64,000 nucleotides of DNA from Bdellovibrionota bacterium (GTDB lineage: Bacteria; Bdellovibrionota_C; UBA2361; OMII01), in the NCBI GenBank assembly GCA_044351885.1, contig JBILEW010000010.1, positions 30 to 64,029 on the forward strand, read 5' to 3'. The position numbers and the translations under genes are program-made. Below are positions 20,851 through 41,282 of this stretch, piece after piece (within the stretch, counting starts at the first letter, position 1; every line of letters starts with the position of its first letter). The notes beneath the pieces are model-generated. The model was not told the DNA's origin. It made no database searches and saw nothing but the letters and a program-made list of their open reading frames with translations.

Positions 20851-21285
20851 GGCTCATCGTGGAATCCAGTCGGCGGTGCCGAGGCCGGGGATAGCGCAAG
20901 TCGTTGTTTTGACCGAAACATCCCGCCTTTCCACGTGAACGTACCCGAACGAGCGGCTTTATTCCCTCCCGCCCGAACTAGAGCAGTATGCTCGACTATG
21001 AAAAACTAGACGTCTATTGAACAGCGCTATTTCTCAATAGCACGAAGATCGGTCATGGAGTGTGGTGCCCTCTTTGATCTGTTAAGCGCTCTAAGCTATG
21101 TCGTCCCCTGACGCCTGACGAGTATCGCGCTGGGAAGCGTTTGCTTACAAGGATTGCAACCATGCTTTCCAAGCTATGCCTTCAGCCCCCATGACGCTCG
21201 TTTCGGGTACGTTCACGTTTACGTGCACGAGCACGTTTACGTCCGGATAATACCGAGTCCTACCCACTCGATTCCACGAAGAGTC
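20851..21285 (+). mobile_element. NCGTRN inverted-repeat element carrying a deleted four-helix-bundle gene (copy 1)
   Basis: Inner IR acgtgaacgtacccgaa (20933) / ttcgggtacgttcacgt (21202); imperfect outer IR ggctcatcgtggaatc / gattccacgaagagtc; highly similar to 40941-41282. Confidence 0.75.
20988..21194 (+). pseudogene. Four-helix-bundle protein (23S rRNA IVS protein / TIGR02436-like) remnant
   Basis: Fragments in shifting frames: MLDYEKLDVY*, QRYFSIARRSVMECGALFDLL, LTPDEYRAGKRLLTRIATMLSKLC. Confidence 0.75.
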
Positions 21286-21302
21286 TTTTTGCACCCTGTG
21301 GT

Positions 21303-24300
21303 TTATGCAGCCTGCGGCGTCCGAAATGATGCATGCAAACGCATGCGCTCTCGCAGCGCCTCGCCCCACAAGGTACGCGCTTCGCTAAGCTCACGAGGAT
21401 GACCTTCGAAGACGACTGTGCCTCCCTGCTCTCCAGGTCCTGGTCCAAGCTCGATCACCCAATCCGCTTGCGTAATGGTATCAGCGTCGTGCTCTATCAC
21501 GATTACCGAGTGGCCTTGATCAACGAGACGATGCAAACCCTTCAGGAGTAGTTCGACATCCAAGCGATGCAATCCTGTGGTTGGCTCATCGAGGATGTAT
21601 ACCGTGTGTCCCTTTCGAGACGTGTGTAGCTCGGAGACGAGTTTTATGCGTTGGCTCTCGCCTCCCGAGAGGGTCGAGGATGGCTGCCCGAGAGTGAGGT
21701 ACCCCAAGCCTAATTCGCAGGCCAGCCTGCATACCTGGTGAACCTTGCGGTGGTTAACGAAGAAGGTTTTGGCCTCCTCGAAGGTCAGTTTCAAAACCTG
21801 GCTGATGCTCAGATCGCGAAACTTCACGGAATCTGCTTCGACGGAAAATCTACTTCCCATGCAGCCTTCGCAGAGAACCGTTGCCTCGGCCAGAAAGCTC
21901 ATCTCCAGCTTGAGCTCCCCTTGGCCTTTACACACCGAGCAGCGCCCCTTGCCCGTGTTGTGCGAAAAATAGCTCGCCCCCCAACCTCTCGACTTCGCTT
22001 CGAGGGTCTCTGCGAACACTTTACGTATCTCATCCCAGATTCCCAGATACGAAGCGGGGGTCGAACGAGAGGTTTTACCGATCGGTTGTTGATCCACTAC
22101 GAGATGACGCTCGATCGGAAGGGTGCTCGTGACGACACCGCAGGTGCCACGGTAGATCCCCTTGGCACCCGCTCCGGAAGCCAGCGCCTCCCCGAGAACC
22201 CCGTGAACGAGCGAACTCTTTCCGGAACCTGATATGCCGGCCACCACTACCAGGCTCTCGAGAGGAATTTTCACATCCAGCCTCGATAGGTTGTTCTTCG
22301 TAGCTCCTTCGATCGAGATGTGCTCTGTAGAGGTGGAGGTTGACTCGTTGATCGAGAGTTGAGTGCCGAGCGCAGCTCCCGTTGGACTCTTCTTAGCTAC
22401 AACTGCATCTCGAACTGAGCCTTCAAATACGATCTCTCCACCGTGTCTACCCGCAGCCGGTCCAACATCGATGATGTGCTCGGCCGCAAGTATGTTGTCT
22501 ATCTCGTGCTCGATCTGGATTACCGTGTTGCCACGCTCCTTGAGCTCGATCAGCTTTTTGAGTAGGCGTTTGTTGTCGGCCGGATGGAGACCTGCACTCG
22601 GTTCGTCGAAGATGTAGGTCGCCCCGCACAGAGGAGAGCCCATGGCAGTTGCGAGCCGTAACCGTTGAAGCTCTCCGTTGGACAGCGTCGAGCACTCTCT
22701 GTTGAGAGAGAGATGTTCGAGGCCGAGATCCACGAGAGTCGACAGCTTTCCCTCTAATTCCGAGAGTATTGGCAAAGCTATCTCACGTCGAGCCTTATCC
22801 GCTCGCAGCGATGCGAGCGTCTGTGCTAGCTGTGGTGCAGGTAGATTCGTCAATTCGTGAATGTTCTTTCCTAGGAGACGTATGCTGCGTCCGATCTCGT
22901 TGATCCTTGTCCCACAACATTCAGGGCATAACTTTCCCCGTACCGTTCCGAAACCATCGCAGCGATCGCACCGTCCTCTGCGTGAGTTGAAGGAGAGATC
23001 CTCCGGGTCCGGCTTGAAGAAGCCACGATGGCACACCTGACACGTTCGCTCAGAGCTGAAGATCTGCTCGTCGCTTTCACTGACTACGACAACTGTGCCG
23101 CCGCCGACAGCGAGGGTTTGGACAACGCCCTCTCGGATCAGGTCCACCGGCATGTTTTTGACATTGAAGCGAGCAGTCACGAAGTCTATAGAGTGGCTCT
23201 TGGTTTTAGCGAGTCCCTCGTCGACGAAACGTGAAGGAGCCGAGAAGGTACCATCTACACGAACCTCGCTAATCTCCGTCTCCATCGCCCTCTGGAATAC
23301 GGCTCGATGATTGCCTTTCTTTTGGTTGATGACAGGGGCAAGGATCCGGACGGTTCCCTTGTAGGTACTCTTAATGAGATCTGCGATGTGTTCAGCGGAG
23401 AGGGGAGAGATCGCCTGCTCCGGGTGATCTGGACAGTATTGAATTCCCACCTTGGCGTACAGAAGTCGCAAAAAGTTGTACACCTCGCTCATCGTAGCAA
23501 CGGTGGAGAGGGCAGAAGGTTGAAAGGTGTGTTGGTAGACGCAGATGGTCGGTTGCACGTTACGAATGTCGTCGATGGCGGGCTTCTTGAGCTCCTTGAT
23601 GAATTGACGCGCATATGGAGAGAGACAATCGAGATATCGACGCTGACCCTCGGCATACAGGATATCCTTGGCGATGGTCGATTTTCCGGAACCGGAAACC
23701 CCAGTGAGCGTCACGAGTGTGTTGAGCGGGATGTCGAGGTTCACGTCCTTGAGGTTGTGCTCCTTGGCTCCCCTGATCTGAATCGCACGTGGCCCACTGC
23801 GCGCGCCTGAGGCCCGGTTCTTTCGCGCGCGCTTAGCAGACGCGGCCTTTTTGCGGACTTTACCGTATCGTTCGACGAACTCTTTCAGGTAATGAGCAGT
23901 CAAACTCAACCTGTTCCCACTGCCCACGGTGTCCGAAACAAACTGGTGAGGCGTGCCTTCCTTGAGCACCTCGCCACCTCGATAGCCGCCTTCTGGACCG
24001 AGATCGATTATCCAATCCGCATCTGCGATGAGGCGCAAGTTGTGCTCTACGCAAATTATCGAGTGTCCCTGATCTACGAGCAGCTCGAAGAGTTCGAGGA
24101 GCCGCTCCACATCCCTGACGTGTAGGCCCGTAGTCGGTTCGTCGAAGAGGAAGAGTGATCGACCTCGCGAGCCCTCGATAATGTGAGGGACGAGCTTTAG
24201 CCTCTGCGCCTCTCCACCTGACAGCTCGCTCAAGGGGTGTCCGAGGGTCAGGTGCCCTAAGCCAAGTTGTGAGAGAACCTTACACACACTGGAGATGAGC

Positions 24301-26690
24301 AGCTCACTACCGATAAATTCGCTGCACGCATCGACGCTCATTGAGAGTATCTCGTGGACATTTCTCCCTTTGTAACGAACCTCGAGAACAGGAGCCTGGA
24401 ATCGCATACCCAAGCAAGTTTCGCATTCGATGAAGACGTCGCTCAGAAACTGCATGTCCTCGCGGATGAAGCCAGCCCCTTCGCACGCTGGGCACCGTCC
24501 TGCGTTGACGTTGAAGGAGAACGAAGACTTCGAAAGCCCGCGGGCCTTCGCTTCCTCGGTGCTGGAAAGGAGCTCGCGCACGCGATCCCAGACCTTCGTA
24601 TAGGTGGCTATGTTGGCGCGCGGAGTCTTGGAGAGCGGAGACTGATCGACTAAGAGCACGTCGCGCACATGCTCAAATCCCGATACCTGAGCATCAACAG
24701 TGAGCTCACCCGGAACGATACCTTTAGAGAGCTCGTACGATGCCTCGATGACCTCGGTTAGAAGGGAGCTTTTGCCACTACCCGAGACCCCAGTAAGGCA
24801 CACAAACGCGTTCAATGGTATGTCGAGATTGATGGACTTGAGGTTGCGATTGGATGCCTTGCGAATCTCGAGTCTTCGCTCGAACGAAGGTTTTGCGTCG
24901 CGAGCGCTGAAGGAGCGCATGCCGAGGCCATCCCAGTCTTCACGCGCACCGAGGAAGGATACCTCTCCTCCCTTTTCGCCAGCCTCTGGCCCCAGCTCCA
25001 GTATAGTATCGGCTGCTTCCAGGCAGTCGGGATCGTGCTCGACAACCGCTAGAGAGTTGCCCTTGTCCGTAAGCTCTCTGAGAGCTCGCACGAGCTGATC
25101 GGTGTCGCGTGCATGTAGCCCCACCGAGGGCTCGTCCAAGACGAAGTGAGTCGAGATGAGGTTGCTTCCCAAAGCGGATACGAGATTGACTCGTTGTGTC
25201 TCACCACCCGACAGGGTCCTCGCTTGTCGATCGAGGCTGAGGTATGGCAATCCCAGCGCGACGAGATAGCCGAGTCGACTACCGATGTTCTCGCAAACGT
25301 CCTTGAGTTCGCGCGGCATCCGTCCCTCTGTCTTGAGAGTGCCTCTCAAGCGGTCGAACCAGGTAGAGAGCTCGTCGAGCGGCATTTTCCAGATCTCTGC
25401 GATTGTGCGCCCTTCAATCTGATATGCGAGCGCGTCCGACTTAAGGCGAGTTCCTTTGCACGAAGGGCAGTCGACCTGACCGCGGTAGCGCGCAAGGAAG
25501 ACGCGCACGTGCATCTTGTATTTCTTACCTTCGAGATATTTGAACCACGCATTGATCCCGACGAACTTCCGAGAGCGGCTCTCGAAGATGAGATTGCGTT
25601 GCTCGGTAGAGAGCGCAGACCAGGGCTTGTCTATAGGAATGCCTGCCTCCTTGCAAAAAGCCAGGAGTTGCTTGTGTTCCCAGGCGGCGGAGTTGCCTCG
25701 CCAGCATTCGACTGCATATCCGGCGATCGTCTTACTGTGGTCCGGTACGCACTTGTTTGGATCGATTACGAGAATTTTTCCAAATCCATTACACTCACTA
25801 CATGCACCTATCGGATGGTTGTAGGAAAAGAGCGCCGGTCGCGGACGCTCGATCGAGATATCGCCATCACCACAATGAAAGGTGTTCTTGAACACATACG
25901 ACTCGAATAGGGTGCTGACGACTTTGGGTTCACCCAAGGTTGAAACTCGAGCCAAGGGCTTGGTGACTTTGCGAGCGACCTCAATCACCTCGATGGTGCC
26001 ATTTCCGAGGGAGAAGCACTGTTCGAGGGATTCCCGCAGCCGCTTCGCGGAGAAATTCCCCTCTTTGCAGCGGTCGATGATTACTGAAAGCTGTTTGATT
26101 CGCTTCGGTGGCGGCGTGTCTTCGAAGCTCGAGATCTCCGCCTTCGTTTGGTCGAAATATCGCGAGTACCCCAACATCTGCAGTCGCTCGAGTGTCTCGC
26201 GGGAGTTGCCAACCCTCACACCGACGAGAAAAGTAGCGTGCGACTTTACAGAGCACCAGCGCTCGAGGAGTTCGGTTACCCGCACAGGATCCCAGCGCGT
26301 AAGCTCGAGTCCGCATCGCGGGCACATCGGAGTTGAGACGTTGCTCCACACGATTTTGAGGTAATCGTTGATGTCGGTCATCGACCCGACCGTTGAGCGC
26401 GAGTTTAGGATCCTCGTACGCTGTTGGATAGCAATAGCCGGCCGCACGTTCTCCAACAGGTCAACCTTGGGGCGCTTCACCTTATCGAAGAATTGGCGAG
26501 TATAGGGAGAGAACGTCTCTATGTAGCGGCGCTGTCCCTCTGCGTAGATCGTGTCGAAAGCGAGGGAGGATTTGCCGGATCCCGAGAGCCCCGTGATACC
26601 GACAAATGTGTCGTGTGGCATCTCGATATCGATGTGCTTGAGGTTGTTCTCGCGGGCGTTACGGATTGTGAGGGAGTTGCGCGCAGCCAT
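21303..26690 (-). CDS. uvrA: Excinuclease ABC subunit A, double-length (four ABC domains)
   Basis: Four Walker A motifs GxSGSGKS, two YAEGQRRY motifs, signatures LSGGE x3 and LSNGE, multiple Zn-finger CxxC pairs. Confidence 0.95.
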
Positions 26691-27041
26691 TGGACAGAAT
26701 GTATCGTGTGAGTGTCAGAGCGGCAACAACGGGAACCTCGAAAAACGCGAAAATAGAGGTCCTTGCGGATGTAAATAGACACAAAGAGAGTGATGAGGAC
26801 AGAAGAGGGACGAGGGTCCGCTGTAATTTCTAAGCGGCTGTCCCTTGCACCTCGCTGCTCTCACCGTTCTCTTTGTAAACAGACCACTACTAAGAGAACG
26901 CGTGTGTCGAGCGATTGCTTCACCGAAGGTCTCTTGTCGCACGGGTTTGTGAGAGCGTACTCTGCCTAGCAAGACAGAGCCCGTTTTCGTACATATCCTA
27001 CATCTGGTACGATCGGTCTGAAGTTCCATAGGGGTATCGCC

Positions 27042-28286
27042 GTGAAAATGCTTGTTTCAAAATCTCTTCGAGAAAATCTTGCTCGCGTCTCTCTCTCGGT
27101 TCTACTGACGAGTTTTGCGGTATGTGCGTCGGTGCGGGCAGAGGAGGCAGCCTGTACCGTAGCCGCAGCAGCTTTGGAGCAGGCCGTGAAGATCCGAGGT
27201 CTAGAGAGAAAGTCTCAGGTTCCTTGTCTCGTAAGCGACAAGGCGCAGGTCGCAAAGTTTTTGCGTGAAACGATCGCCACGAAGCTGCCCCCGAATAAAA
27301 TAGAGATGGAGCAGCTGGTATATCGAACTCTCGGGGTAGTCCCCGAGGATTACGACTATGCAAATGGCATAATAGAACTGTATGCCAGCCAGATCGGGGG
27401 ATACTACGACCCTGAAAAGAAGCACTTCATCATGGCAGCCTGGATGCCGGCGGCGCTACAAGTAACGGTAGCCGTGCACGAGCTCACACATGCGCTTCAG
27501 GACCAACACTTCGACCTCGAGAAGATGATGGATCCCAAGCTTGAAAACGGAGACAAGCTCTTGGCTATAGCTGCTCTGGTTGAAGGCGATGCCACTGCTG
27601 TGATGACCGATTACATGAGAGCACTGGCGGGTCAGGCTCCGTTGAGCAAGGAGAGTAATATCGACAGCTTGTTGCTGCAGCAGGTCTTGGCCGGAAGCGC
27701 CGGAGGTTTTGAGAAAACCCCAGAGGCGCTTCGCTCGCTTCTGCTTTTTCCGTATACGAGCGGGCTTCGATTCGCGCACCGACTGCTCGTCGCGGGAGGA
27801 TATCCGGCTGTCGACAAGGCTTTTCTCAATCCCCCCACGAGCTCGCGTGAGATCCTTCACCCGGAGGTCTACCTGACGTCGAGCATCCCATCCAGTATCC
27901 CGAGTCTCGAAGAGTTGGACCGTGGAGGTTCGACGGCGAAGGAGTTGTACACGGATGTCATAGGAGAGTTCGGTATTTCGGCCCTTCTCGCTGCAGGACT
28001 GAAACAGAAAACCGAAGCGATCACTGCCGCCACTGGATGGTTGGGAGATCGGGTTGGAGTTTTTGAAACGCCCTCACCGGAGAGGCTGGTCTCGTGGAAG
28101 ACTCGGTGGGAGAGCGAGAAGGACGCCCAGGAGTTCGCGGAGGCGTATGGAAGGTTTTTAGAATCCCGCTATTCGACTAAACCTTCACCCGATGGCACCT
28201 ATGCTACTCGACGCAAGACCATCCGGATCTCGAGGTCTGGAGCAGATGTCTCGGTCGTTTTCGTGGCAGGCTCGACCGCTCAGTGA
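27042..28286 (+). CDS. Exported putative zinc metallopeptidase (HExxH)
   Basis: Signal peptide; IGGYYDP, VAVHELTHALQDQHF, LVEGDA, LLFPY..G. Confidence 0.7.
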   Translation: MKMLVSKSLRENLARVSLSVLLTSFAVCASVRAEEAACTVAAAALEQAVKIRGLERKSQVPCLVSDKAQVAKFLRETIATKLPPNKIEMEQLVYRTLGVVPEDYDYANGIIELYASQIGGYYDPEKKHFIMAAWMPAALQVTVAVHELTHALQDQHFDLEKMMDPKLENGDKLLAIAALVEGDATAVMTDYMRALAGQAPLSKESNIDSLLLQQVLAGSAGGFEKTPEALRSLLLFPYTSGLRFAHRLLVAGGYPAVDKAFLNPPTSSREILHPEVYLTSSIPSSIPSLEELDRGGSTAKELYTDVIGEFGISALLAAGLKQKTEAITAATGWLGDRVGVFETPSPERLVSWKTRWESEKDAQEFAEAYGRFLESRYSTKPSPDGTYATRRKTIRISRSGADVSVVFVAGSTAQ

Positions 28287-28425
28287 CTTGGTTTGCTTGA
28301 GCGCTTGTCAGGCAAGAATCGCCGTATGTGCCTGATGAGGGATGGTTTTACTTCGATTGTGGACCGAGGCTCAAGTGAATAAGAGACCTTGTCGATACCT
28401 ATGCTGAGACCTGGAGGGTAGAGGT

Positions 28426-29202
28426 GTGGACAAGGACAAGAAGTTCGATGTGCTATTACTGGATAACGACCTCGATGCGAGGATGCGGTTGCAGCATGCG
28501 ATTTCGCTCAATCCTGAATTTGGTCGAGATATTCAGACAAATAATTTCACCGAGGCTCTCGAGGTTTTCCGGGAGCAAACTAAGAGCCTAGACCTCGTCT
28601 TCATAGCAAATACAAATCTCCAATTTCAGGATATCGAGCAGTTTATCGGAGAGGCTCGAACTCTCGTAGGAGCGCAGGATGCTTCTTTTGTCGTGGTTTT
28701 CTCTTCGTATGAAGGCAAAGACGAGTTGATTGCTCAGGTATACAATTTAGGAGCGGACGGCTACATCTTCGAACCATACTCCGCCGATGATTTTCGTCGT
28801 ATGGCCAATATGGCAGCCCGTGTCGGTCCTCGACGTCTGATCGATCGTGAGGTGCTCTCGATCGGACCCACGGTAAGAGAAATGATAAAACTCATCGACC
28901 TGATGCATAGCCTACTTGCTCAGCAGTGCTCGATAGAAAAGAGCTGGGAGAGATTTCAGGCAATAGGACAGCGATTAGCTCGGTTTCAGAAGGAGTCCAA
29001 AGAGGTGTACTTCGAGTACATCCAAGAGGTCTTACCTCTATTGTCGGCTCCGGATCCAGAGATAAGCAGTCTCAAAAATCATCAGCATAAGAGCCCTCGG
29101 CTGCGAAAGCGCCTGGAGGATACGCTCCTGCGAGCGCCCGAAAAGCAAGCGGAGCAGGAGGCTGAATTGAAGCGCAAGCTCCCGCCGATCCGATGCGGCT
29201 GA
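28426..29202 (+). CDS. Atypical receiver-domain protein
   Basis: VLLLDND..RMRL, LDLVFI, LGADGYIFEPYS; GGAGGG RBS before GTG. Confidence 0.65.
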   Translation: MDKDKKFDVLLLDNDLDARMRLQHAISLNPEFGRDIQTNNFTEALEVFREQTKSLDLVFIANTNLQFQDIEQFIGEARTLVGAQDASFVVVFSSYEGKDELIAQVYNLGADGYIFEPYSADDFRRMANMAARVGPRRLIDREVLSIGPTVREMIKLIDLMHSLLAQQCSIEKSWERFQAIGQRLARFQKESKEVYFEYIQEVLPLLSAPDPEISSLKNHQHKSPRLRKRLEDTLLRAPEKQAEQEAELKRKLPPIRCG

Positions 29203-29219
29203 GGTCGCCACCAAATTCT

Positions 29220-31636: not shown

Positions 31637-31702
31637 ACTTCTGTTTATTGTTGTTAAGGGTTGTTCATGTTAGAAAGTAGAATCTAGGTTGAGGTTTCGC
31701 AC

Positions 31703-32602
31703 ATGATCTACCACAAGATTGCTCGTTGGCCTTTCTGCTTGCTTACCCTGACGTCTGTCGTGCTTGCCGCCTTGCCTTTAGCTGCCCACTCGATAGAACG
31801 CCCAGAGGAGGTGCTCAACAAAGAGGTTGGTGTCTATACCCAACTAGGGGTCAAGGTGGATCTGAGCCGGGTATTCACGGATCGGCTAGGGGAGCGCAAG
31901 CCTCTGAAAAATTTCGCCATAGCCGATAAGCCAATCCTCATAGTACCCGTTTATTACAAATGTCCCCGGATGTGCGGACTAATCCTAGACGGGGTCGTCA
32001 ACCTGCTGAACCAAACTACGCTCCAGCTCGGCGAGGACTTTTCGGTCCTCGCGGTGAGCTTCGACCCTCTGGAGACGGCTTCGGATGCGGGGGATGCGTG
32101 GGCTAAATTCAACGAGCGTTTGATCGATGATGCTGCGCGTGGTCGAGAAGCATTTAGGTTTCTAGTTGGAAGTGACGAAGATGTTGCTGGGTTGATGCGT
32201 GAGCTCGGCTTCAAGTATTTGCGTGAAGGGAAGGACTTTGCTCACTCCGCAGCGGTTATGATATTGACGCCGACCGGAGAGATCTCGCAGTATTTCACCG
32301 GTATACAGTTTTCCCCCTGGGATGTTCGCCTGTCCTTGATCGAAGCCTCACAAGGAAAGATCGGGTCGGCGATGGATCATTTCCTTCTCTACTGCTTTAG
32401 ATTTGATCCACTCCAAGGTAAATATACGTGGGCAGTGGAAGGTGTTTTGCGAGTAGGTGGGGCATTGACCCTGCTTGGCTTGGGCCTGGTGTACTTTTTC
32501 TTTGCGAGAAAGCGACCAGAAACCGAGCCAGTCAAAGCGCCGGTGAAAGATAGTACAGAGCCATCTTCAGATGGATGGCGCGATAAAACAGGTAACGGAT
32601 AG
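31703..32602 (+). CDS. SCO1/SenC-family copper chaperone
   Basis: YYKCPRMC (CxxxC), VSFDP.E, FAHSA, LLYCFRFDP..GKY, C-terminal TM. Confidence 0.9.
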   Translation: MIYHKIARWPFCLLTLTSVVLAALPLAAHSIERPEEVLNKEVGVYTQLGVKVDLSRVFTDRLGERKPLKNFAIADKPILIVPVYYKCPRMCGLILDGVVNLLNQTTLQLGEDFSVLAVSFDPLETASDAGDAWAKFNERLIDDAARGREAFRFLVGSDEDVAGLMRELGFKYLREGKDFAHSAAVMILTPTGEISQYFTGIQFSPWDVRLSLIEASQGKIGSAMDHFLLYCFRFDPLQGKYTWAVEGVLRVGGALTLLGLGLVYFFFARKRPETEPVKAPVKDSTEPSSDGWRDKTGNG

Positions 32603-32615
32603 AGAAAGACTAACT

Positions 32616-33929
32616 ATGTTGGGATTGTTAGGAGAGCAAGGATCGGACTTTGCTCACAAGGTAGATTACGCCCACGATATTGTGACGATCATCTCGGTAG
32701 TGTGTACGGTGGCGATCGTCGGCGCGATGCTGTACTTCGCCGTTATCTACCGTCAACGAGACGGGCGCGACCACGAGACCCCGATGATCGAGGGTAACAA
32801 CCTTCTCGAGGTTATCTGGACGGTCTTCCCAACGCTGGTCGTTATCTGGGTCGCCTACCTCGGCTACGACGCTTTCATCGACATGCGAACGGCTCCAGCC
32901 GATTCGATGGAGATCAACGTTACCGGTCAGAAATGGGCTTGGGATTTTCAATACGCAAACGGCAAGAAGACCACCGGCGAGCTCGTAGTGCCCGTAGATC
33001 AGCCGGTCAAGCTCGTCATGACCTCTCGGGATGTTCTGCACTCGTTCTTTGTGCCCGTCATGAGAACGAAGATGGACGTGATCCCGGGTCGCTACACATA
33101 CGAGTGGTTTAGGCCGATTAAGACAGGAGACTTTCAGGTCTTCTGTACGGAGTACTGCGGGGATCTTCACTCGGGGATGCGTGCGCGCCTTAAGGTGTTG
33201 CCGAAGGCGGAGTTTGAGCGATGGCTCGCTGATGACAGCGAGGAGCGCAAGCTCGCTTCGATGAAGCCCTCGGATCGTGGCCAAGAGATCTACGGCAAGC
33301 AGTGTATAGCCTGTCACAGTCTTGATGGATCGCCCCGCACCGGTCCTTCATGGCTGAAGATATTCGGTAAAGAGGGCCAGCTCGTCGGGGGAGGTACATA
33401 CAAAGCCGACGAGAATTATATCCGCGAGTCTATTCTGTATCCGCAGGCTAAGACGGTGGCAGGTTATGAGGCCGCAGCGAATGCAATGCCAAGCTACAAG
33501 GGTCAGCTCTCAGACGATGACATCACGTCGCTCATCGCATTCATGAAGACCATCGATGGTACTCAGAAGGTTGCGCCTGCGCAGCCTTCTGCTCCAAAGG
33601 CTCCCGACGCTGCACAACTGGCAGCCATGTCACCAGCAGATCGCGGCAAGGCTCTTTTCAATGACCCAGGCAACATGTGCTACACCTGCCACAGCATCGA
33701 TGGCAGCCGTCTAGTGGGTCCTTCTATGAAGGGGCTCTGGGAGCGTAAGTCGAAGATGTCTGATGGCACTGAGGTAGTCTCGGATGCCAACTACATCAAG
33801 GAGTCGATCCTCAAGCCTCAGGCGAAGATGGTCGAGGGATATGGTCCGGTAATGCCAGCGATATACGAAGGCAAGCTCACGGACGAGAACATCTCCGATA
33901 TCATCGAGTACATAAAGACCCTCAAGTAG
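32616..33929 (+). CDS. ctaC: Cytochrome c oxidase subunit II with two C-terminal cytochrome c domains
   Basis: LEVIWT, QKWAW, DVLHSFF, CTEYCGDLHSGM (CuA), CIACH and CYTCH. Confidence 0.93.
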   Translation: MLGLLGEQGSDFAHKVDYAHDIVTIISVVCTVAIVGAMLYFAVIYRQRDGRDHETPMIEGNNLLEVIWTVFPTLVVIWVAYLGYDAFIDMRTAPADSMEINVTGQKWAWDFQYANGKKTTGELVVPVDQPVKLVMTSRDVLHSFFVPVMRTKMDVIPGRYTYEWFRPIKTGDFQVFCTEYCGDLHSGMRARLKVLPKAEFERWLADDSEERKLASMKPSDRGQEIYGKQCIACHSLDGSPRTGPSWLKIFGKEGQLVGGGTYKADENYIRESILYPQAKTVAGYEAAANAMPSYKGQLSDDDITSLIAFMKTIDGTQKVAPAQPSAPKAPDAAQLAAMSPADRGKALFNDPGNMCYTCHSIDGSRLVGPSMKGLWERKSKMSDGTEVVSDANYIKESILKPQAKMVEGYGPVMPAIYEGKLTDENISDIIEYIKTLK

Positions 33930-33951
33930 TTGTAAGAAGGTGAGATAAGGT

Positions 33952-35580
33952 ATGTCAGCGCACGCTACAACAGCACACAACGAAGAGCTCAATTACCTAA
34001 ACTGGAAGACCGGTCTATGGTCGTGGCTCTCCTCCACTGACCATAAGAGGATCTGCTTCTTGTATCTCTTTGCGATACTCATCTTCTTCTTTGCGGGGGG
34101 GCTGGCAGCGCTCTTGATGCGTCTCGAGCTCTCTACAGCTGGGCCTACCATTCCCGCAGTGGTGACAAGTCCGCACGTCTACAACGTCCTGTTCACTCTG
34201 CATGGAGTGTTCATGATCTTCCTTTTTGTGGTGCCCGGTATCCCGGCAACCCTTGGAAACTTCCTGATTCCTCTCATGATCGGTGCGAAGGACGTAGCGT
34301 TTCCCCGACTGAACCTATTCAGTTTTTATCTCTACGTCATCGGTGCCGCAGTTGGAGCGATATCCTTGCTCAATCCGGTCGATACCGGATGGACATTCTA
34401 TGCGCCCTACAGCACCACCACAGGTAGTTCTGTCTCGCTGATGGTTTTTGCCGCCTTCATCCTCGGCTTCTCCTCGATTCTTACAGGACTAAATTTTATC
34501 GTGACGATCCATCAGTTGCGCGCCCCTGGGATGACGTGGATGCGCCTACCGGTATTTATCTGGGCGTCATACGCGACAGCGATTATTCAGACGGTTGCAA
34601 CACCGGTGGTTGGAATGACCCTTTTGCTCATAATCGCCGAGCGCGTGTTCGGTGCGGGCATATTCGATCCAACCAAGGGTGGTGATCCGGTTCTGATGGA
34701 ACACCTCTTCTGGTTCTACTCGCACCCGGTAGTATACATTATGGTGCTTCCGGCCTTCGGCGTCGTTGGTGAGATAATCCCGGTGTTCTCGCGTAAGCCG
34801 CTCTTCGGATACAAGATGGTGGTTCTTTCCTCCATGGCGATCGCAGCGGTTGGTTTCGTCGTGTGGGCGCACCACATGTTCGTATCTGGCATCTCGGATT
34901 TTTCTGCTATCTTTTTCTCCCTCGTGACCTTCTTGGTAGCAATTCCGACAGCTATTAAGGTGTTTAACTGGGTCAGCACGATGTACAAGGGGTCGATCAG
35001 CTTCACGACTCCGATGTTGTACGCGATGGCTTTCGTATTCCTCTTCATGATTGCGGGAACAACTGGAATCTACCTCGCGATGCTTGGCGTTGATGTATAC
35101 TATCACGACACGTACTTCGTAGTAGCTCACTTCCACTACACTATTCAGGGGGGAGCAGTAATCGGCTTGATTGCGGCGCTCCACTTCTGGTTTCCGAAGA
35201 TGAGCGGAAAAATGTACAACGAGACGCTCTCAAAGTTGGCATTCGCAATGGTGTTCATCGGGTTCAATCTGACCTTCATTCCTCAGTTCGTGCTCGGTAT
35301 GGACGGTATGCCGCGGCGCTACTACGACTATCCGGCTCAGTACCAGAACCTGCACACCATTTCGACGGTAGGAGCGTTCCTAAACGGGTTCGGTTATACA
35401 TTCGCGTTGCTGAACCTGCTGGGAACGGCCCTCTTCGGTAAGGTGAAGGCTCCTCGCAATCCGTACAATTCGGTAAGTCTCGAATGGCAGACGGCCTCGC
35501 CGCCTATCCACGAGAACTTCCCGGAGACCCCAGTGGTCGATAAGGATCCGTATCACTACGGAACCCCAGCTCACGTATAG
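33952..35580 (+). CDS. ctaD: Cytochrome c oxidase subunit I, type A2
   Basis: DHKRI, WFYSHPVVY (YS motif of A2 oxidases), WAHHMF, VVAHFHY, GMPRRY. Confidence 0.96.
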   Translation: MSAHATTAHNEELNYLNWKTGLWSWLSSTDHKRICFLYLFAILIFFFAGGLAALLMRLELSTAGPTIPAVVTSPHVYNVLFTLHGVFMIFLFVVPGIPATLGNFLIPLMIGAKDVAFPRLNLFSFYLYVIGAAVGAISLLNPVDTGWTFYAPYSTTTGSSVSLMVFAAFILGFSSILTGLNFIVTIHQLRAPGMTWMRLPVFIWASYATAIIQTVATPVVGMTLLLIIAERVFGAGIFDPTKGGDPVLMEHLFWFYSHPVVYIMVLPAFGVVGEIIPVFSRKPLFGYKMVVLSSMAIAAVGFVVWAHHMFVSGISDFSAIFFSLVTFLVAIPTAIKVFNWVSTMYKGSISFTTPMLYAMAFVFLFMIAGTTGIYLAMLGVDVYYHDTYFVVAHFHYTIQGGAVIGLIAALHFWFPKMSGKMYNETLSKLAFAMVFIGFNLTFIPQFVLGMDGMPRRYYDYPAQYQNLHTISTVGAFLNGFGYTFALLNLLGTALFGKVKAPRNPYNSVSLEWQTASPPIHENFPETPVVDKDPYHYGTPAHV

Positions 35581-35616
35581 GTATTTTTCAAGGAAGAGAA
35601 TTAGGACAAGGAAGAT

Positions 35617-36273
35617 ATGAGCTCACATGCAGCAGCGACTCACGAGGTTGCTCCAGGGGATCCGCCCCACATTCACCACATGGACAGCACCACAGCGTAC
35701 GGGGCAGCGAAGCTTGGCATGTGGCTCTTCTTGGCTACGGAGATCCTGCTTTTTGCGGTGATGTTCTGCAGTTTCGCTATCATGCGATACTATCACCTCG
35801 ATAAATTCCATGACGCGAGCCACCACCTCAACTTGTGGGCCGGCGCATTCAACACAGCGGTGCTGCTCTTTTCCAGCTATACGGCTGCCGTAGCCGTCAC
35901 AAAAGCCCAGCTGGGTGACAATCGCGGGGTTGTAGTGAATTTCGGGATCAGCATCCTGTGTGGATTTATCTTCCTCGTCGTGAAGGCGTATGAGTATTCG
36001 GAGAAGGCTCATCACGGGATGTTTCCCTTCGTTTGGAACTCGAATTTTTACGAATATGCGAATTTCCTGGGCATTTACTTCACCATGACCGGACTGCACG
36101 CACTGCACGTCATCATCGGAATGGTAGTGATGTTCATTTACGGGGTGAGACCTGCCATGAGGAACCGCTATTCAGGTCGCTACTACACCCCGGTGGAGCT
36201 CAGCGCGCTCTATTGGCACTTGGTTGATCTGATCTGGATCTACCTCTTCCCGTTGCTCTACCTAGTTGGATAA
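35617..36273 (+). CDS. ctaE: Cytochrome c oxidase subunit III
   Basis: LGMWLFLATE, NTAVLLFSS, TGLHALHV, LYWHLVDLIW. Confidence 0.93.
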   Translation: MSSHAAATHEVAPGDPPHIHHMDSTTAYGAAKLGMWLFLATEILLFAVMFCSFAIMRYYHLDKFHDASHHLNLWAGAFNTAVLLFSSYTAAVAVTKAQLGDNRGVVVNFGISILCGFIFLVVKAYEYSEKAHHGMFPFVWNSNFYEYANFLGIYFTMTGLHALHVIIGMVVMFIYGVRPAMRNRYSGRYYTPVELSALYWHLVDLIWIYLFPLLYLVG

Positions 36274-36291
36274 TTCGGAGTACTAGACGCT

Positions 36292-36648
36292 ATGTCACAC
36301 GCTCATTCACACGACCATTCAAGCGGACACAACGACGGGGGTCACGTTGTCCCCGTTTCGACCTTCCTCAAGGTGCTTATTGCCCTCTTGGTACTCACCG
36401 TTATCACCGTGTTGGCCGCAAAGGTCGACATGGGCAAGTGGAACATCGTAGGCGCCCTAGGGATCGCCTCGATTAAGGCGACGCTGGTGATCTGGGTTTT
36501 CATGCACGGCAAGTACGAGAACCGTATCCTGTGGACCTACATCCTGATCCCTTTTATCTTATTGGCGATCATGATTGGAGGGATCTTCACAGACGATCCG
36601 TTCCGCAGTCATCCTCAGCCGGTAGCAGTGGAGAAGGCTAAGGCTTGA
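36292..36648 (+). CDS. ctaF: caa3-type cytochrome c oxidase subunit IV
   Basis: LLVLTVITV, IASIKATLV..FMH; three TM; His-rich N-terminus. Confidence 0.88.
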   Translation: MSHAHSHDHSSGHNDGGHVVPVSTFLKVLIALLVLTVITVLAAKVDMGKWNIVGALGIASIKATLVIWVFMHGKYENRILWTYILIPFILLAIMIGGIFTDDPFRSHPQPVAVEKAKA

Positions 36649-36765
36649 GCAAGCGAGACAAACGCTTCCCTTGGTAAGTACGGCAATTTTGCGGCGCCCG
36701 AAGGGTTAGCCCTAACAAAAAGATTATAATCGCGACGCGATGATGCTCTCTTTGTTCTCCGCTTC

Positions 36766-36795
36766 AGCCAAGGTCGATCGGCAGCCTGGCTTTTT
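36766..36795 (+). terminator. Possible intrinsic terminator of the oxidase operon
   Basis: agccaagg..cctggct stem followed by T run. Confidence 0.35.
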
Positions 36796-36802
36796 GGTTA
36801 AT

Positions 36803-36953
36803 TAACGCGGAGGCGCGGAAGACGCGGAGGGCGCAGCCGAATGTTACGAGTACTGGTCGGCTCCTCAAGTCGGCTGTTCTCGTGCACTAGCTCCCATGAG
36901 TCTCGTAGCAATGCCCATCCTGCGGTCTCCGCGTTTTCCGCGCCTCCGCGTTA
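36803..36953. repeat. 151-bp element with 34-bp inverted arms of CGCGGA units
   Basis: taacgcggaggcgcggaagacgcggagggcgcag / ctgcggtctccgcgttttccgcgcctccgcgtta (31/34 match). Confidence 0.8.
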
Positions 36954-37091
36954 CATAAGCGAAATATTCGGACACCGAAGAACTTGAGTGCTTACCGAAC
37001 GAGGTATAGTTAGCATCCTGTGGACAACACAAGCGTCGACTTGACTGTCGCCCGTCACGCAATCGTTCTTTTGCTCAAGTTCGAGCAGGCC

Positions 37092-37586
37092 TTACTCGGC
37101 GATCTCGACAAACTCGACCTCTCCTGTTTCCACGGTCAGAAACGCGATCGTATATCCATCGGCTGCGAAGAGAGCACCAGGGTTGATTACCCGAGTTCTC
37201 CCTAGTACTTCGTTGCGCATCTCATGGGTGTGTCCGTGGAGCACGTAATCGTACTGCTGGCTCTCTACTGCATCCTCGATCACGCGCGAGTTGGTTCCGT
37301 GGTTCACGAAGAACTTTTTGCCGCCCGACTCGAATGTAAGGGAATCTGCGATCTCAGCGAACCCCAACTCGGCACACTTCTTCTTGAGACCTGAACGCTC
37401 ACCATCGTTGTTGCCATACACCAAGCGTAAGGGGAGTCCGGCAAAACGCTCGAGCACGGGAGGGGAGATAATATCTCCGCAATGAATCACCATGGATGGA
37501 TTCCGCTCTTTGAAGAGCGCGACAGCCTTGATGATGGGACGTACATTCTCGTGGGTATCCGAGACGATTCCGATGCAGGTGGTCAT
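37092..37586 (-). CDS. YfcE/MJ0936-family metallophosphoesterase
   Basis: SDTH, HCGD, GNND, HG, HGHTH, INPG; GGAGGA RBS. Confidence 0.92.
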   Translation of the reverse strand: MTTCIGIVSDTHENVRPIIKAVALFKERNPSMVIHCGDIISPPVLERFAGLPLRLVYGNNDGERSGLKKKCAELGFAEIADSLTFESGGKKFFVNHGTNSRVIEDAVESQQYDYVLHGHTHEMRNEVLGRTRVINPGALFAADGYTIAFLTVETGEVEFVEIAE

Positions 37587-37676
37587 AATGAAGTCCTCCT
37601 CTGAGCGCATTTCGAAGGAGCGGACCGAAGCCTTTTTGTGTCAAAGGTTCCGGCGATGCACCCACTTAGCCGGCGC

Positions 37677-38204
37677 TCATGCGCCTTTGAGAATACGACG
37701 TATGTTTAGTAGGTCTTTCGTGTAGCGTCCATCCTTGAAGTCGGGAAAGCTCCATTCGAATGGTCGATACTCGCCCTGAGAGTAGCGCGCTGCGAGGTCG
37801 GCGTATATTCCCTGAGTCAGGTACACCTTCTGTCCCGCTTCCTTGGTGCTCGCCAAAACAACCTTATTGTGGTCGAGATAGCCGGCATCGAGGTTGACAC
37901 GTCGGCGGCCTGCTATCGCGAACTCCTGTTCGATTCGCATGCAGGTGAGCTTTGCCCACGGGAGGCTATCCGCATAATGGGGGCCCGTAAAGCTGACAAG
38001 CTGCCTCGAGAGGTCGGCGCTCATCTCGGCCTCGTAGTACCTGGTAACATCGAATGGAATCGGCTCTCCCTGGTAGTCGAGGGGCCCAAATTCCCGTGAC
38101 AGAGCCTCGACTACGGCGTGCTGCTCAACTCCTGGAGCGCCCAGAATAGCCACGAACAGCTTCACGAGAGGGATAGTTGGGGTCGTCGGCGTCTCAGATG
38201 TCAT
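37677..38204 (-). CDS. DUF4416 family protein
   Basis: F..T.YY.AEM, RRVNLDAGYL, VVLASTK, GIYADL, W.FPDF; ATGA overlap with upstream stop supports start 38204. Confidence 0.8.
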   Translation of the reverse strand: MTSETPTTPTIPLVKLFVAILGAPGVEQHAVVEALSREFGPLDYQGEPIPFDVTRYYEAEMSADLSRQLVSFTGPHYADSLPWAKLTCMRIEQEFAIAGRRRVNLDAGYLDHNKVVLASTKEAGQKVYLTQGIYADLAARYSQGEYRPFEWSFPDFKDGRYTKDLLNIRRILKGA

Positions 38205-39031
38205 GGCGAGCTCCTGGTTGTCGAAGAGGGTAGCCATGAGAGTGCCTTGGCGACTATCTCGGCTGCGATCCCTGTCCGTCGAGCGATCTCTACAGCCAAA
38301 GATTCCTGGGAGAGCTCGGCAACGTGAGATGAATCCGTAGAGCGGACGACTACCCGGCCTTTCTGTATGTAGATCTGGCAGCCCTCTCGCACCGTGGAGA
38401 CGATGGGGTATGTCATCATCTCCCACAAAAAGGATGCTTCCCAAGCCCGTACGAATGCCGACTCGTCGACCGGGATCGTTTTATAGGTCAATCGATAGCG
38501 GCGATTCTCACCCTGAACGGTGCTCAGGGTAACTGCGTGGTCTGCGATGCGCTCGAGTTCGATACGCGAATAGCTCGTCGAATAAATCCGAGTGCCGACC
38601 GAAGGAAGTGGACACGCTGAGTGGATGAGGTACCCTGGATCGACGAGGTGCCATGCGTTAGGCTCGACTTTGACCATGGCTGCACAGTGCGTGTCGTCCC
38701 CGTAGCGCCTGTTTGCTAGGATCGGATGTGCTTCGAATCCTAGAGCCCGAAGAAGGTAAATCAGGGTGTTCGTAAGCGAGAAGCAGGTGCCGCCGGTGCC
38801 GTACGACCAGAAGCTTTCGAGAAGCTCTGAGGGAGTCTCTCGCTTCGAGGCGTGAGGCTGCTCGTGTGAGCGGGTGATCTTCGTGAGGTTTTCGTATGGG
38901 ATGCGGGAAAAGCTTTGGAGCACCCGTGAAAGGAGATCCTCGCGTGTTGTGGATAATGGGATCCCGGAGCGTGTCAGGAAGATGCTAGTGGTTTCGTCGA
39001 GAGCTGAAAGAAGAGGTGAAAAGGGGTCCAT
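38201..39031 (-). CDS. Arylamine N-acetyltransferase family protein
   Basis: IPYENL, GGTCF (Cys), THCA (His), LVDPG (Asp) catalytic triad. Confidence 0.82.
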   Translation of the reverse strand: MDPFSPLLSALDETTSIFLTRSGIPLSTTREDLLSRVLQSFSRIPYENLTKITRSHEQPHASKRETPSELLESFWSYGTGGTCFSLTNTLIYLLRALGFEAHPILANRRYGDDTHCAAMVKVEPNAWHLVDPGYLIHSACPLPSVGTRIYSTSYSRIELERIADHAVTLSTVQGENRRYRLTYKTIPVDESAFVRAWEASFLWEMMTYPIVSTVREGCQIYIQKGRVVVRSTDSSHVAELSQESLAVEIARRTGIAAEIVAKALSWLPSSTTRSSP

Positions 39032-40277
39032 GATACTTATTGTCGCGTCACAAACACTTCGTCATTCAGGTGTTCAAGCAGGGCTCTTGAAGGCTCTCGT
39101 ATTTGGCCTTGCTCTCGGTATTGTACACACATCCCACGCCGAAGACATAACTGACCCAGAGCCCAAGGCGTGTTGTCGAGCTAATGCGGGTAGGGCTGCT
39201 CTGTTGAGTGCTCGAGCCCACAACTTGAGCCCACAGGTTGCCGCTAAGTCCCCGAAAGCGGTGACTCCTGAAGCGTTACCGCCGCAACCCTGGCCAGCCA
39301 ACATGGTGTGGATCCCTGGAGGAAGCTTCGAGATGGGGGGAACGGGACCAGAAACGAGACCTGACGAGCTGCCGATTCACAAGGTTCGACTCGATGGATT
39401 TTGGATGGATGAGACCGAAGTGACGAACAAACAGTTCAAGGAGTTCGTCGATGCAACGGGCTATGTAACCACCGCAGAGAAGAAACCCGACTGGGAGGAG
39501 CTCAAGAAGCAGCTTCCTCCAGATGCACAGAAGCCTGATGATTCAGTGCTCGTCCCAGGCTCTCTCGTGTTCGTACCGACCGAAGGTCCGGTGTCTTTGA
39601 ACGACTACGGGCAATGGTGGACATGGATGCCAGGAGCTAATTGGCGTCACCCATTCGGTCCAGAGAGCTCACTCGATGCCAGCCACGATAATTATCCAGT
39701 AGTGCATGTCTCGTGGGATGATGCAGTAGCGTATGCTCGCTGGGCCGGCAAAAGGTTGCCGACAGAGGCCGAATGGGAATTTGCGGCTCGGGGTGGGCTC
39801 GAAGGTAAGCGCTTTGCGTGGGGAGAGGAGCTGAACCCGAATGGCAAGCATATGGCGAATGTATGGCAGGGATCTTTTCCGTACAAAAACACCAAAGATG
39901 ATGGATATGATTACTCCGCACCAGTTCGCGCCTTTCCGCCCAACGGCTACGGTCTCTACGATATGATTGGTAATGTATGGGAGTGGGTCGATGATTGGTA
40001 CCGGAGCGACTACTATCAAACGCTGAGCACTCAGGGAGGAGAAGCGATGAATCCTGCTGGGCCTACCGATAGCTTCGATCCCGATGAGCCAAGCATGCCC
40101 AAGCGGGTAAATCGCGGAGGCTCCTTTCTTTGCCATGCAGAGTACTGCGCTAGTTATCGTCCTGCGGCGCGCATGAAGACAGCTCCCGATACCGGTCAGA
40201 TCCACCTTGGGTTCAGGACGGTGGTGAGTGACGCAGATTGGCGAAAAAATCGTTCCAATCCGAATGGGGTAAGATAA
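39030..40277 (+). CDS. Formylglycine-generating enzyme (SUMF1/FGE-sulfatase domain) family protein, exported
   Basis: MVWIPGGSFEMG, EVTN, RLPTEAEWEFAARGG, GLYDMIGNVWEW, RGGSFLC..YC, GFR. Start uncertain. Confidence 0.9.
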   Translation: MILIVASQTLRHSGVQAGLLKALVFGLALGIVHTSHAEDITDPEPKACCRANAGRAALLSARAHNLSPQVAAKSPKAVTPEALPPQPWPANMVWIPGGSFEMGGTGPETRPDELPIHKVRLDGFWMDETEVTNKQFKEFVDATGYVTTAEKKPDWEELKKQLPPDAQKPDDSVLVPGSLVFVPTEGPVSLNDYGQWWTWMPGANWRHPFGPESSLDASHDNYPVVHVSWDDAVAYARWAGKRLPTEAEWEFAARGGLEGKRFAWGEELNPNGKHMANVWQGSFPYKNTKDDGYDYSAPVRAFPPNGYGLYDMIGNVWEWVDDWYRSDYYQTLSTQGGEAMNPAGPTDSFDPDEPSMPKRVNRGGSFLCHAEYCASYRPAARMKTAPDTGQIHLGFRTVVSDADWRKNRSNPNGVR

Positions 40278-40286
40278 AATTAAAAA

Positions 40287-40946
40287 GTGGTCATGATGAG
40301 TATGAATTCACGAGTAGGTAATTCGGCATTCACAAGAATGCTATTCTTTGTAGTTGTTTCGGCACTACTGACAAGCTGCTCCTCGACAAAGGTTGTGCAG
40401 TCATGGGCTAATCCCGAGTTGTCGCCTCCTAAGCGGGTGATGATATTCGGAGTAACGAAAGAAGAGGTACTCAGGCGCTCGTATGAGGATCAGCTGAGTC
40501 AAGCGCTCACGTCTGAAGGGCTATCGGCGATCCCGAGTTATAAGGTGCTCCCGAGTGAAGGTGAGGTGGAGAAGGATAAGCTGACCGAGGCGGTTCATAA
40601 GGCGGGAGCAGATGCGGTGTTCATCACGCGGTTGGTACGTGTAGCGAAGCGTTTGGACACAGTGCCAGTGCCCGCCCCTGTATGGGGGCCACCGTTTGGT
40701 CCGTGGGGTGGTTATTATCCCTATTGGCCGAACTACTACTACGACTCTTATCGGATCGTAGAGCGTGAGTTTGCTTTCATCGAATCCAATCTCTACAAAG
40801 CGGATAGTAGTACTCTACTCATGAGTATCATGACGAGGACAGAGGACCCTTCCTACTCGGATCGTAAGGTACAAGAAGTTGTGCGCTTGGTCGTGAAGGA
40901 GTTTCGTAAGAACGGGCTGCTTGGTGGGGTAGAGGCTGCTACGTGA
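40287..40946 (+). CDS. Lipoprotein of unknown function (DUF4136-like)
   Basis: Lipobox LTSC; RRSYED, ADAVFITRLV, G/P/Y/W-rich loop; stop codon lies in the repeat arm. Confidence 0.7.
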   Translation: MVMMSMNSRVGNSAFTRMLFFVVVSALLTSCSSTKVVQSWANPELSPPKRVMIFGVTKEEVLRRSYEDQLSQALTSEGLSAIPSYKVLPSEGEVEKDKLTEAVHKAGADAVFITRLVRVAKRLDTVPVPAPVWGPPFGPWGGYYPYWPNYYYDSYRIVEREFAFIESNLYKADSSTLLMSIMTRTEDPSYSDRKVQEVVRLVVKEFRKNGLLGGVEAAT

Positions 40947-41282
40947 ACGTGCTCGTGCACGTAAACGTGAACGTACCCGAACGAGCCCCCGCCCGAAATA
41001 GAGCAGTATGCTCGACTATGAAAAATTAGACGTCTATCGAACACTGCTATTTCTCAATAGCACGAGGATCAGTCATGGAGTGTGGCACCATCTTTGATCT
41101 GTTAAACGCTCTAAGCTATGTCGTCCCCCGACGAGGATCGCGCTGGGAAGCGTTTGCTTACAAGGATTGCAGCCATGCTTTCCAATCTATGCCTTCAGTT
41201 GCCATGATCCCTGTTTCGGGTACGTTCACGTTTACGTGCACGTTCACGTCGGCATAACACCGAGTTCTACCCACTCGATTCC
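40941..41282 (+). mobile_element. NCGTRN inverted-repeat element carrying a deleted four-helix-bundle gene (copy 2)
   Basis: Arms 40941-40981 / 41215-41249 with a perfect 28-bp core cgtgcacgtaaacgtgaacgtacccgaa; tail tacccactcgattcc shared with copy 1. Confidence 0.8.
41008..41207 (+). pseudogene. Four-helix-bundle protein remnant
   Basis: MLDYEKLDVYR / YFSIARGSVMECGTIFDLL / DEDRAGKRLLTRIAAMLSNLC in three frames. Confidence 0.75.

Follow-up and report, generated by a model that had tools for sequence, protein, structure and literature searches.

How does a gene that is already broken come to stand at two places in one stretch of chromosome, each time between inverted arms of short tandem repeats? 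The stretch is a 64,000-nucleotide piece of a Bdellovibrionota bacterium genome (GenBank assembly GCA_044351885.1, contig JBILEW010000010.1; G000:C5:30-64029, hereafter the window), and the gene belongs to PF05635/TIGR02436, the four-helix-bundle family of 23S ribosomal RNA (rRNA) intervening sequences, which is related to Avd, is widespread and has solved structures. A sequence-only reading of the window had suggested a mobile element with the repeat arms as its ends, duplicated after its gene had been broken, moved in trans and conceivably passing through RNA. Here G000 is the source genome (4.0 Mb in 173 contigs, 55% G+C, 96.7% complete), G009, G016, G022 and so on are other genomes, C denotes contigs of G000 and L fetched loci. 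The two loci, copies A and B, are very probably decayed copies of one non-autonomous DNA transposon, a miniature inverted-repeat transposable element (MITE) with an ISL3-family transposase as its presumed mover. The mobility is in that sense ordinary; the cargo and the repeat architecture found family-wide around it are not.

Re-reading both regions (A, 20700-21500; B, 40700-41500) recovered the sequence as described: the same remnant of about 200 nt, enclosed by inverted arms of hexamers (for example ACGTGA, ACGTGC, TCGTGC, ACGTAA, ACGTGA and ACGTAC, then CCGAA). Aligned over a stretch that starts in the inner part of the left arm and runs some 40 nt past the right one, A and B have a mean column identity of 85%, and homology stops at the element ends; the outer flanks bear no relation to each other, as had been stated. 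The arms of B (40941-40981 and 41215-41249) are 94% complementary, and for the right arm of A (21202-21242) against the left arm of B the figure is 98%. Both copies lie between convergent protein-coding open reading frames (ORFs), not in a 23S rRNA gene. The family assignment was right, with one qualification: intact genes of this type exceed the family cut-offs (PF05635, 84 and 81.3 bits against 33.8; TIGR02436, 73.5 bits against 24), but the window remnants have no PF05635 match at E <= 0.01, and their link to the family runs through DNA identity to the intact G000 gene (87-91% for A, 85-90% for B). Each has lost about 141 nt, positions 140-279 of a 513-nt reference, or about 47 codons where roughly 50 had been estimated. 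The shared junction (139|280 in reference coordinates) is real and lies within a direct microhomology of 9/10. In copy A the DVY codons run straight into a stop codon, and 7 nt are duplicated near 21110; metagenome contigs switch to undeleted gene sequence past 21028.

The hexamer arms are not a chance pattern: G000 has 208 arrays of period 6 with a CGT core and 209 with an ACG core, against 10-78 for eight other trinucleotide cores. A motif scan of the genome gave 164 ends of left arms and 144 starts of right arms; these form 108 pairs, with loops of 15-23 nt in 86 (exactly 17 nt in 66) and of 105-393 nt in 22. Both 393-nt loops (C173:64476-64869 and C88:43234-43627) contain an intact 115-amino-acid ORF between the same arms, the undamaged form that the sequence-only reading had called for, and BLAST with the intact element counts 30 cargo-bearing places. 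Intact-element counts are lower bounds, as many contigs (C120, C153, C104, C79, C36, C52 and others) start or end within elements and four intact-looking cargo pieces are truncated by contig ends. The hairpin repeats are one of the main causes of the fragmented assembly, many contigs ending in them; in contigs of metagenome runs, the summed depth on the arms is about 100-fold higher. Segmental duplication as the origin of A and B is ruled out, since homology ends at the element ends, there are about 30 cargo-bearing places and orthologous sites are empty.

Where, then, are the mobile ends? They do not coincide with the arms, as had been supposed. Alignment of 18 full copies with their flanks reveals conserved sequence further out: a 24-nt terminal inverted repeat (TIR) at both ends and a spacer of about 56 nt after the left one. 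A full element measures about 600 bp and reads TIR, spacer, left arm of about seven ACGTGN hexamers (about 42 nt), gene, right arm, about 15 nt, TIR. The TIR has 52 matches in G000, forming 13 pairs at 138-600 nt and none longer; an 8-bp direct repeat, exact or 7/8, surrounds seven of these pairs, and A or T makes up 45 of the 56 bases in the seven repeats (AATTGATT, TTTATTTT, GTATTTTT, ACAAAAAC, ATTTTATC, AAAATCAT and, for copy A, the 7/8 pair TTTTTGGA/TTTTTGCA). Five relatives carry 75-120 TIRs each, the reversed control pattern giving 0. The TIRs and the 8-bp duplications lie outside the arms: the arms are internal and belong to the cargo, and the mobile ends are the TIRs.

Orthologous loci in relatives differ by presence and absence of the element, another expectation of the sequence-only reading that was borne out. 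At locus A, G009 and G016 have no insertion: the convergent genes are neighbours there, their stop codons about 12 nt apart, and in G022 108 nt of unrelated sequence comes between them. At locus B the element is missing from G016, where the spacer measures 88 nt and the upstream ORF is six codons longer; in G022 this spacer holds a different copy in opposite orientation. In the window this upstream ORF (40287..40946) stops at a TGA within the first hexamer, and because the left TIR and spacer are absent and the host ORF is shortened, copy B was truncated after insertion. The element is found in a single genus of freshwater metagenome-assembled genomes (MAGs): 20 of the 24 other species contain its DNA, and none of 16 genomes from the order's other families does. 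In four lake or freshwater metagenome runs the copy A insertion is present, and flank contigs enter it without mismatch.

The mover appears to be encoded elsewhere. No transposase lies inside the element. A recognised one does go with it, contrary to the sequence-only reading: ISL3-family genes of three relatives carry the same TIR, none being present in the window or in the assembly. PF01610, the ISL3 transposase, matches in three of 34 other species of the genus (G015, G009 and G019), and all three genes end about 20 nt ahead of a TIR of this type. The insertion sequence ends at L243 and L244 equal a G000 element TIR at 23 of 24 positions (L243 compared with the C50 variant) and L242 has a close variant; the outer flanks of the L243 TIR are AT-rich. 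An 8-bp target duplication is usual for the ISL3 family. Because the relatives' ISL3 genes end in nearly the same TIR, the element is classed as an ISL3-type MITE; we infer that it is mobilised in trans, as the sequence-only reading had suggested without naming a vehicle. Consistent with this, 8-bp direct repeats are described for one ISL3 member in an excerpted passage of PMC12554700. Like ISL3-derived MITEs, the element is short, lacks a transposase, has TIRs near-equal to those of full insertion sequences of relatives, makes an 8-bp duplication, exists in many copies with deletion derivatives and shows insertion polymorphism. It is unlike them in that it carries a selected, promoter-bearing passenger gene in its own internal hairpin, and in that the same passenger module also occurs in a second, unrelated TIR vehicle (C73, and partly C88). 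In the proposed course of events, the mover would be an ISL3-family transposase supplied in trans. The element enters AT-rich DNA, creating the 8-bp target duplication; short intragenic deletions between microhomologies gave rise to derivative lines that went on being copied, A and B belonging to the 141-nt line; and copy B lost its left end, plus the last codons of the neighbouring gene, after insertion.

Several results weigh against this reading. PF01610 has no match in G000 at E <= 0.01, hence none in the window; at six of the 13 TIR pairs no clear duplication is seen; the TIR match of the relatives' ISL3 element is read at the right end only, their contigs ending at the left; and no empty-site allele within the population occurs in contigs of the four metagenome runs. 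Nor does the number of TIRs track the gene: G007 has 120 and G016 has 89, and neither has a PF05635 match at E <= 1e-8. A search for the autonomous insertion sequence met no TIR pair more than 1 kb apart, either in the G000 pairs or among the matches listed for the five relatives. The DDE_Tnp_1 and rve matches in G000 were considered as the source transposase and rejected: they belong to other insertion sequences that are lodged in hairpins and lack this TIR. On C40 a TIR stands by itself, left over behind an ORF of exonuclease-like type.

Was the unit copied after it had been broken? Mostly yes, as far as the copies themselves indicate. Eleven copies, A and B included, share the 139|280 junction; the other deletion classes are 154|297 and 165|336 (two copies each), 193|388 and 139|394 (one each). 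In the branching order of a midpoint-rooted FastTree phylogeny of 27 copies and 324 columns, the 154|297 copies cluster, as do the 165|336 copies, and the 139|280 carriers split in two groups, C50 with C13:40789 and the remainder. Within each of these groups near-identical deleted copies stand at different sites with different duplications. The same-junction copies could instead be repeated, independent microhomology deletions in separately inserted intact copies, as the 9/10 microhomology and the two tree groups might suggest. We consider this improbable: C50 and C13:40789 are near-identical and share the junction, yet their target duplications differ (AAAATCAT versus GTATTTTT), the less common junctions, 154|297 and 165|336, also recur, each at two sites, the deleted form is matched contiguously in at least six places of G045, and a near-match in that genome with junction 165|315 groups with the 165|336 copies. 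Copying after deletion, the order of events first proposed, is therefore for the most part retained. Since the junction is a microhomology, two origins of the 139|280 deletion are possible; it may have arisen more than once.

What kind of passenger is carried? The AlphaFold2 model of the 115-amino-acid protein (predicted local distance difference test score 95) has helices at 4-24, 32-53, 58-84 and 90-111, and Foldseek finds template-modelling scores (TM-scores) of 0.88 to 2gsc, 0.86 to 2rld and 0.77 to Avd. Entry 2gsc, a relative of the element protein, has five chains, and relatives of the PF05635 protein are described as homopentamers in passages of PMC4990558. Those passages also give the function of the family as not known, and the origin of intervening sequences as unclear, at the time of that 2016 Coxiella paper. 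Of the family motif GxxRxxxSxxxNxxE (given in part of PMC3936711), residues R40, S44, N48 and E51 are present and conserved in the alignment; the leading G is replaced, positions 36-37 being an invariant D-Q. dN/dS, the ratio of nonsynonymous to synonymous substitution rates (nine sequences, three read through one stop), is 0.06-0.2 between divergent lineages (dS about 1) and 0.5-4 between the closest copies; by these ratios, the gene is under purifying selection between lineages. At the loci fetched from relatives, 20 in all, uninterrupted full-length ORFs occur in four, all of G009, and the remainder show frameshifts, stops or contig-end cuts, with five of five broken in G016. PADLOC defence-system models recognise 0 families for three paralogs. 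The paralogs on C56 and C167 lack flanking arms; just downstream of the latter (G000:C167:9163-9465) lies a hairpin (L004 1389-1463) with 32-nt arms that are 94% complementary and hexamer-periodic (CTCCTG type).

This protein might itself be the mobility factor, binding the repeat arms, and the gene-bearing copies would then be autonomous or helper-competent masters. Some transposons carry arrays of subterminal binding sites, and there is more to be said for the idea: the gene is the sole ORF in a 600-bp element, purifying selection on deep branches with decaying terminal copies is what element-encoded functions would be expected to show, repeat period and unit track the protein subfamily and not the host, even inside genome G126, and the arms remain complementary though their sequence varies among lineages. 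We nevertheless judge it unlikely. TIRs number about 90-120 in G007 and G016, neither of which has an intact gene; gene-less forms are numerous, both as minimal elements of 138-164 nt and as the family S described below (84 copies with readable flanks); and ISL3 accounts for the TIR and the 8-bp duplication. Because TIR numbers do not track the gene, it is unnecessary for spread of the ISL3-type MITE, and the selection on it must have another source.

A close parallel is offered by the intervening sequences from which the family takes its description. According to passages of PMC4990558, the Coxiella 23S intervening sequence has a 28-bp stem with the S23p ORF in its loop and is excised by RNase III, the ORF is preceded by tandem heptamers, and ORF-bearing 23S intervening sequences, regarded as selfish, are also present in Leptospira, Brucella and Xanthomonas. 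The element resembles them in having a gene of the same family (S23p/PF05635) in the loop of a long terminal stem, in its proneness to decay and in the adjoining short tandem repeats. It is unlike them in lying between protein-coding genes in dozens of copies, in having TIRs, 8-bp duplications and empty sites, and in that both arms are tandem hexamers. That the arms could fold a transcript into a long stem around the gene, as had been proposed, was confirmed by RNA folding: copy B and the intact element reach -124.7 and -189.5 kcal/mol (z -6.3 and -6.0, with 0 of 100 shuffles as good), both with a long terminal stem enclosing the gene. What the locus contributes is a free-living relative of the 23S intervening sequences that bears the marks of DNA transposition directly and whose vehicle, ISL3, can be named.

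It could be argued from these folds, from the layout equal to that of the Coxiella sequence in PMC4990558 as excerpted and from the fold common to the element protein and Avd that the element moves or is processed as RNA, its arms being the stem of an excised and reinserted intervening-sequence-like RNA, possibly by way of reverse transcription and the Avd-like protein. The relation to Avd is one of fold (TM-score 0.77-0.80 to 4dwl and 8ub7), with only 10-11% identity, and the reverse transcriptase of diversity-generating retroelements is missing: PF00078 has 0 matches in G000. The 8-bp duplications of fixed length and the TIRs outside the stem point to DNA transposition, a promoter-like motif sits inside the loop and the stems show no G:U bias. 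An RNA route is thus very unlikely, and the RNA-level step that the sequence-only reading had entertained is neither needed nor indicated. The promoter-like motif, AAC followed after 15-18 nt by CGA[TA]A, lies between the left arm and the ATG; 13 of 63 genes have it, compared with 39 of 1260 control windows, and a looser form is seen by eye in more genes. We take it to resemble promoters of extracytoplasmic-function sigma factors. With this putative promoter in the loop, formation of the full stem would be restricted to read-through RNA and single-stranded DNA. On the reading preferred here, that of an ISL3-type MITE, the arms would serve as a long stem in read-through RNA for RNase III to cut, as an array of binding sites for the ring-forming protein, or as both. 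Two observations count against it. Because the apparent promoter is within the loop, the gene's own transcript would lack the left arm; and stem mismatches show no excess of G:U over A:C (55 versus 57 at consensus-paired positions of 65 S copies; 198 versus 231 and 34 versus 46 in cruder passes, without signal), so that the copies show no sign of strand-specific RNA selection. Rfam returned nothing for copy A at E <= 1 and, for the intact element, one chance-level match to a small nucleolar RNA (E 0.59), and no RNA run containing the locus is listed among 20 runs.

The arms are not confined to the ISL3-type shell. Of the 86 short-loop hairpins, 84 have readable flanks and form family S: the 17-nt loop is conserved, the outer inverted repeat is peculiar to the family and the flanks are CTAG-like; three of its copies are in the window, one of which (939..1126) is flanked by CCAG/CTGG instead of the usual CTAG-like sequence. 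C73 is a gene remnant within an S-type shell, in C88 an ISL3-type left end is fused to an S-type right end, and the C37 and C88 elements are lodged in S loops at ACAAAAAC. Because an S-type shell and mosaic copies carry it, the arm-gene-arm unit behaves as a module independent of its carrier. At L108, L103 and L129 (Kofleriaceae and Myxococcales MAG loci) short outer inverted repeats lie beyond the arms with CTAG on both sides, like family S; carriage within small TIR elements may be common.

Hairpins of this abundance recall the repetitive extragenic palindromes (REP), bacterial interspersed mosaic elements (BIME) and Correia-type repeats, which are likewise hairpin modules common between genes, form mosaics by recombination and draw in insertion sequences; here, however, the arms are tandem hexamers, source copies have a protein gene in the loop and no Y1 transposase is linked. 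The hairpins could in principle be REP/BIME-like palindromes spread by a Y1 transposase of the REP-associated (RAYT) or IS200-like kind, given that they are numerous, intergenic and palindromic and that PF01797 has 11 matches in G000. We give this next to no credence: the matches are weak (22-36 bits, ORFs of about 335 amino acids), 0 of the 11 genes lies within 5 kb of an arm, hence none is arm-flanked, and neither the TIRs with 8-bp duplications of the gene-bearing family (L) nor the CTAG-like flanks of family S are traces of Y1. A search for co-occurring RAYT or reverse transcriptase genes, which the sequence-only reading had thought informative, thus gave no Y1-type gene near an arm and no reverse transcriptase in the genome. 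The PF01797 matches (C7, C143, C107, C39, C6, C116, C139, C8, two on C148, and C170; most ORFs about 325-357 amino acids) form a multi-copy family unlinked to the hairpins.

Hairpins do attract other insertion sequences. An rve-family insertion sequence (ORF of about 404 amino acids) occupies the same right-arm position in at least five element copies (C67, about 116090; C50, about 6400-6540; C152, about 30010; C65, 1-1400; C114, 1-100) and appears to target the hexamer arms. At G000:C60:15560-16880 a DDE_Tnp_1 (IS4/IS5-like) element sits in the middle of an S hairpin, its transposase split over two frames.

Is the gene found between such arms elsewhere? Homologs 44-53% identical occur in MAGs titled Haliangiales, Kofleriaceae, Deltaproteobacteria, Candidatus Brachytrichaceae (Chloroflexota) and Solirubrobacteraceae, and inverted arms of the same hexamer kind surround 8 of 9 such loci examined, oriented as in the element (CGTG-type upstream and CACG-type downstream on the coding strand). 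Arms in other Bdellovibrionota are of quite different hexamers, for example CTTTCT/GATCCT or GGTTCT. Among 63 non-identical near-full-length genes, which are not independent (11 copies of the genus element, about 20 of a two-gene module in G127), inverted repeats made of period-6 or period-7 units flank 23 and inverted repeats of other kinds five, against 0/106 and 0/600 control intervals; a period-6/7 array lies within 200 nt on at least one side of 44/63 genes against 6/137 controls. An independent set, the best PF05635 gene from each of 29 Anaerolineae genomes with four dropped for short flanks, gave tandem arrays of period 7-8 in 20/25 (controls, 3/92) and inverted repeats built of arrays in 14/25 (controls, 0/92). 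In Myxococcota, Chloroflexota, Actinomycetota and other Bdellovibrionota alike, PF05635 genes keep this layout of a gene between inverted tandem repeats. The period, to judge from the proteins compared, tracks the protein subfamily: those at least 37% identical to the element protein go with hexamers, with one exception, those 26-35% identical with heptamers, and genome G126 has both kinds together. As heptamers occur, a coding explanation of the repeats is ruled out. Such a family-wide rule (inverted arrays of 6-8 nt, period by subfamily) was not found in the literature covered, which was mostly open-access and without supplements. PF05635 genes have been noted within cas operons, according to part of PMC3936711. 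Close convergent or divergent pairs of PF05635 genes occur in G127, G032, G035, G097, G081, G053, G069 and G070; G127 has at least 12 convergent pairs (for example C29:29199-29781 and C10:51275-51857), each pair enclosed as a whole by inverted CCCGCT/AGCGGG arrays.

These comparisons raise a broader possibility, which we put forward tentatively and hold to be doubtful as it stands: PF05635 proteins and their flanking short tandem repeats may be one self-contained, horizontally spreading module, in which a ring-shaped protein would read the arrays in RNA or in single-stranded DNA, each subunit taking one 6-8-nt unit, while the inverted arrays would pair into a stem. If so, (i) reading by subunit and unit would explain why period and unit track the protein subfamily, (ii) the stem would let the cassette sit harmlessly in transcribed DNA, (iii) the copies in 23S rRNA genes, operons and MITEs would be one element in different lodgings, and (iv) the dispersed short-tandem-repeat families of some bacterial genomes could be debris of the module. 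The layout rule would in any case make the long-open question of family function testable, through binding of the repeats and RNase III cutting of the stem.

Features of copies A and B and of the family S hairpins in the window
Feature	Position	Strand	Remarks
Left target-site duplication, copy A (TTTTTGGA)	20843..20850	.	7/8 match to right flank TTTTTGCA
Left TIR, copy A, ISL3 type	20851..20874	+	Among the 52 genome TIR matches; resembles TIR ending relatives' ISL3 genes
Spacer of about 56 nt, left TIR to left arm, copy A	20875..20930	+	Conserved among copies (18-copy alignment)
Left hexamer arm, copy A	20931..20949	+	Shrunk to about 2 units plus inner end ACGTACCCGAA
PF05635/TIGR02436 gene remnant, copy A	20988..21194	+	Deletion of about 141 nt, junction about 21028/21029
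Right hexamer arm, copy A	21202..21244	+	7 units
Right TIR, copy A	21262..21285	-	
Right target-site duplication, copy A (TTTTTGCA)	21286..21293	.	
Left hexamer arm, copy B	40941..40981	+	Left TIR and spacer gone
PF05635 gene remnant, copy B	41008..41207	+	Same deletion class, junction about 41048/41049
Right hexamer arm, copy B	41215..41250	+	One unit shorter than in A
Right TIR, copy B	41269..41292	-	Homology to G016 ortholog restarts shortly beyond
S-family hairpin element, gene-less	939..1126	.	Homologous hexamer arms, conserved 17-nt loop, own TIR
Second S-family hairpin element	62482..62664	.	Opposite orientation
Third S-family element	1..103	.	Right half only (window start cuts through)

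Two further repeat types were seen in the window: a tandem pair of a 91-nt unit (48427-48608; 92% alike) with an inverted repeat inside the unit, and an inverted repeat at 36792-36964 with 45-nt arms rich in GCGGAG-like units. Related sequence is present in the locus-B spacers of G016 and G022.

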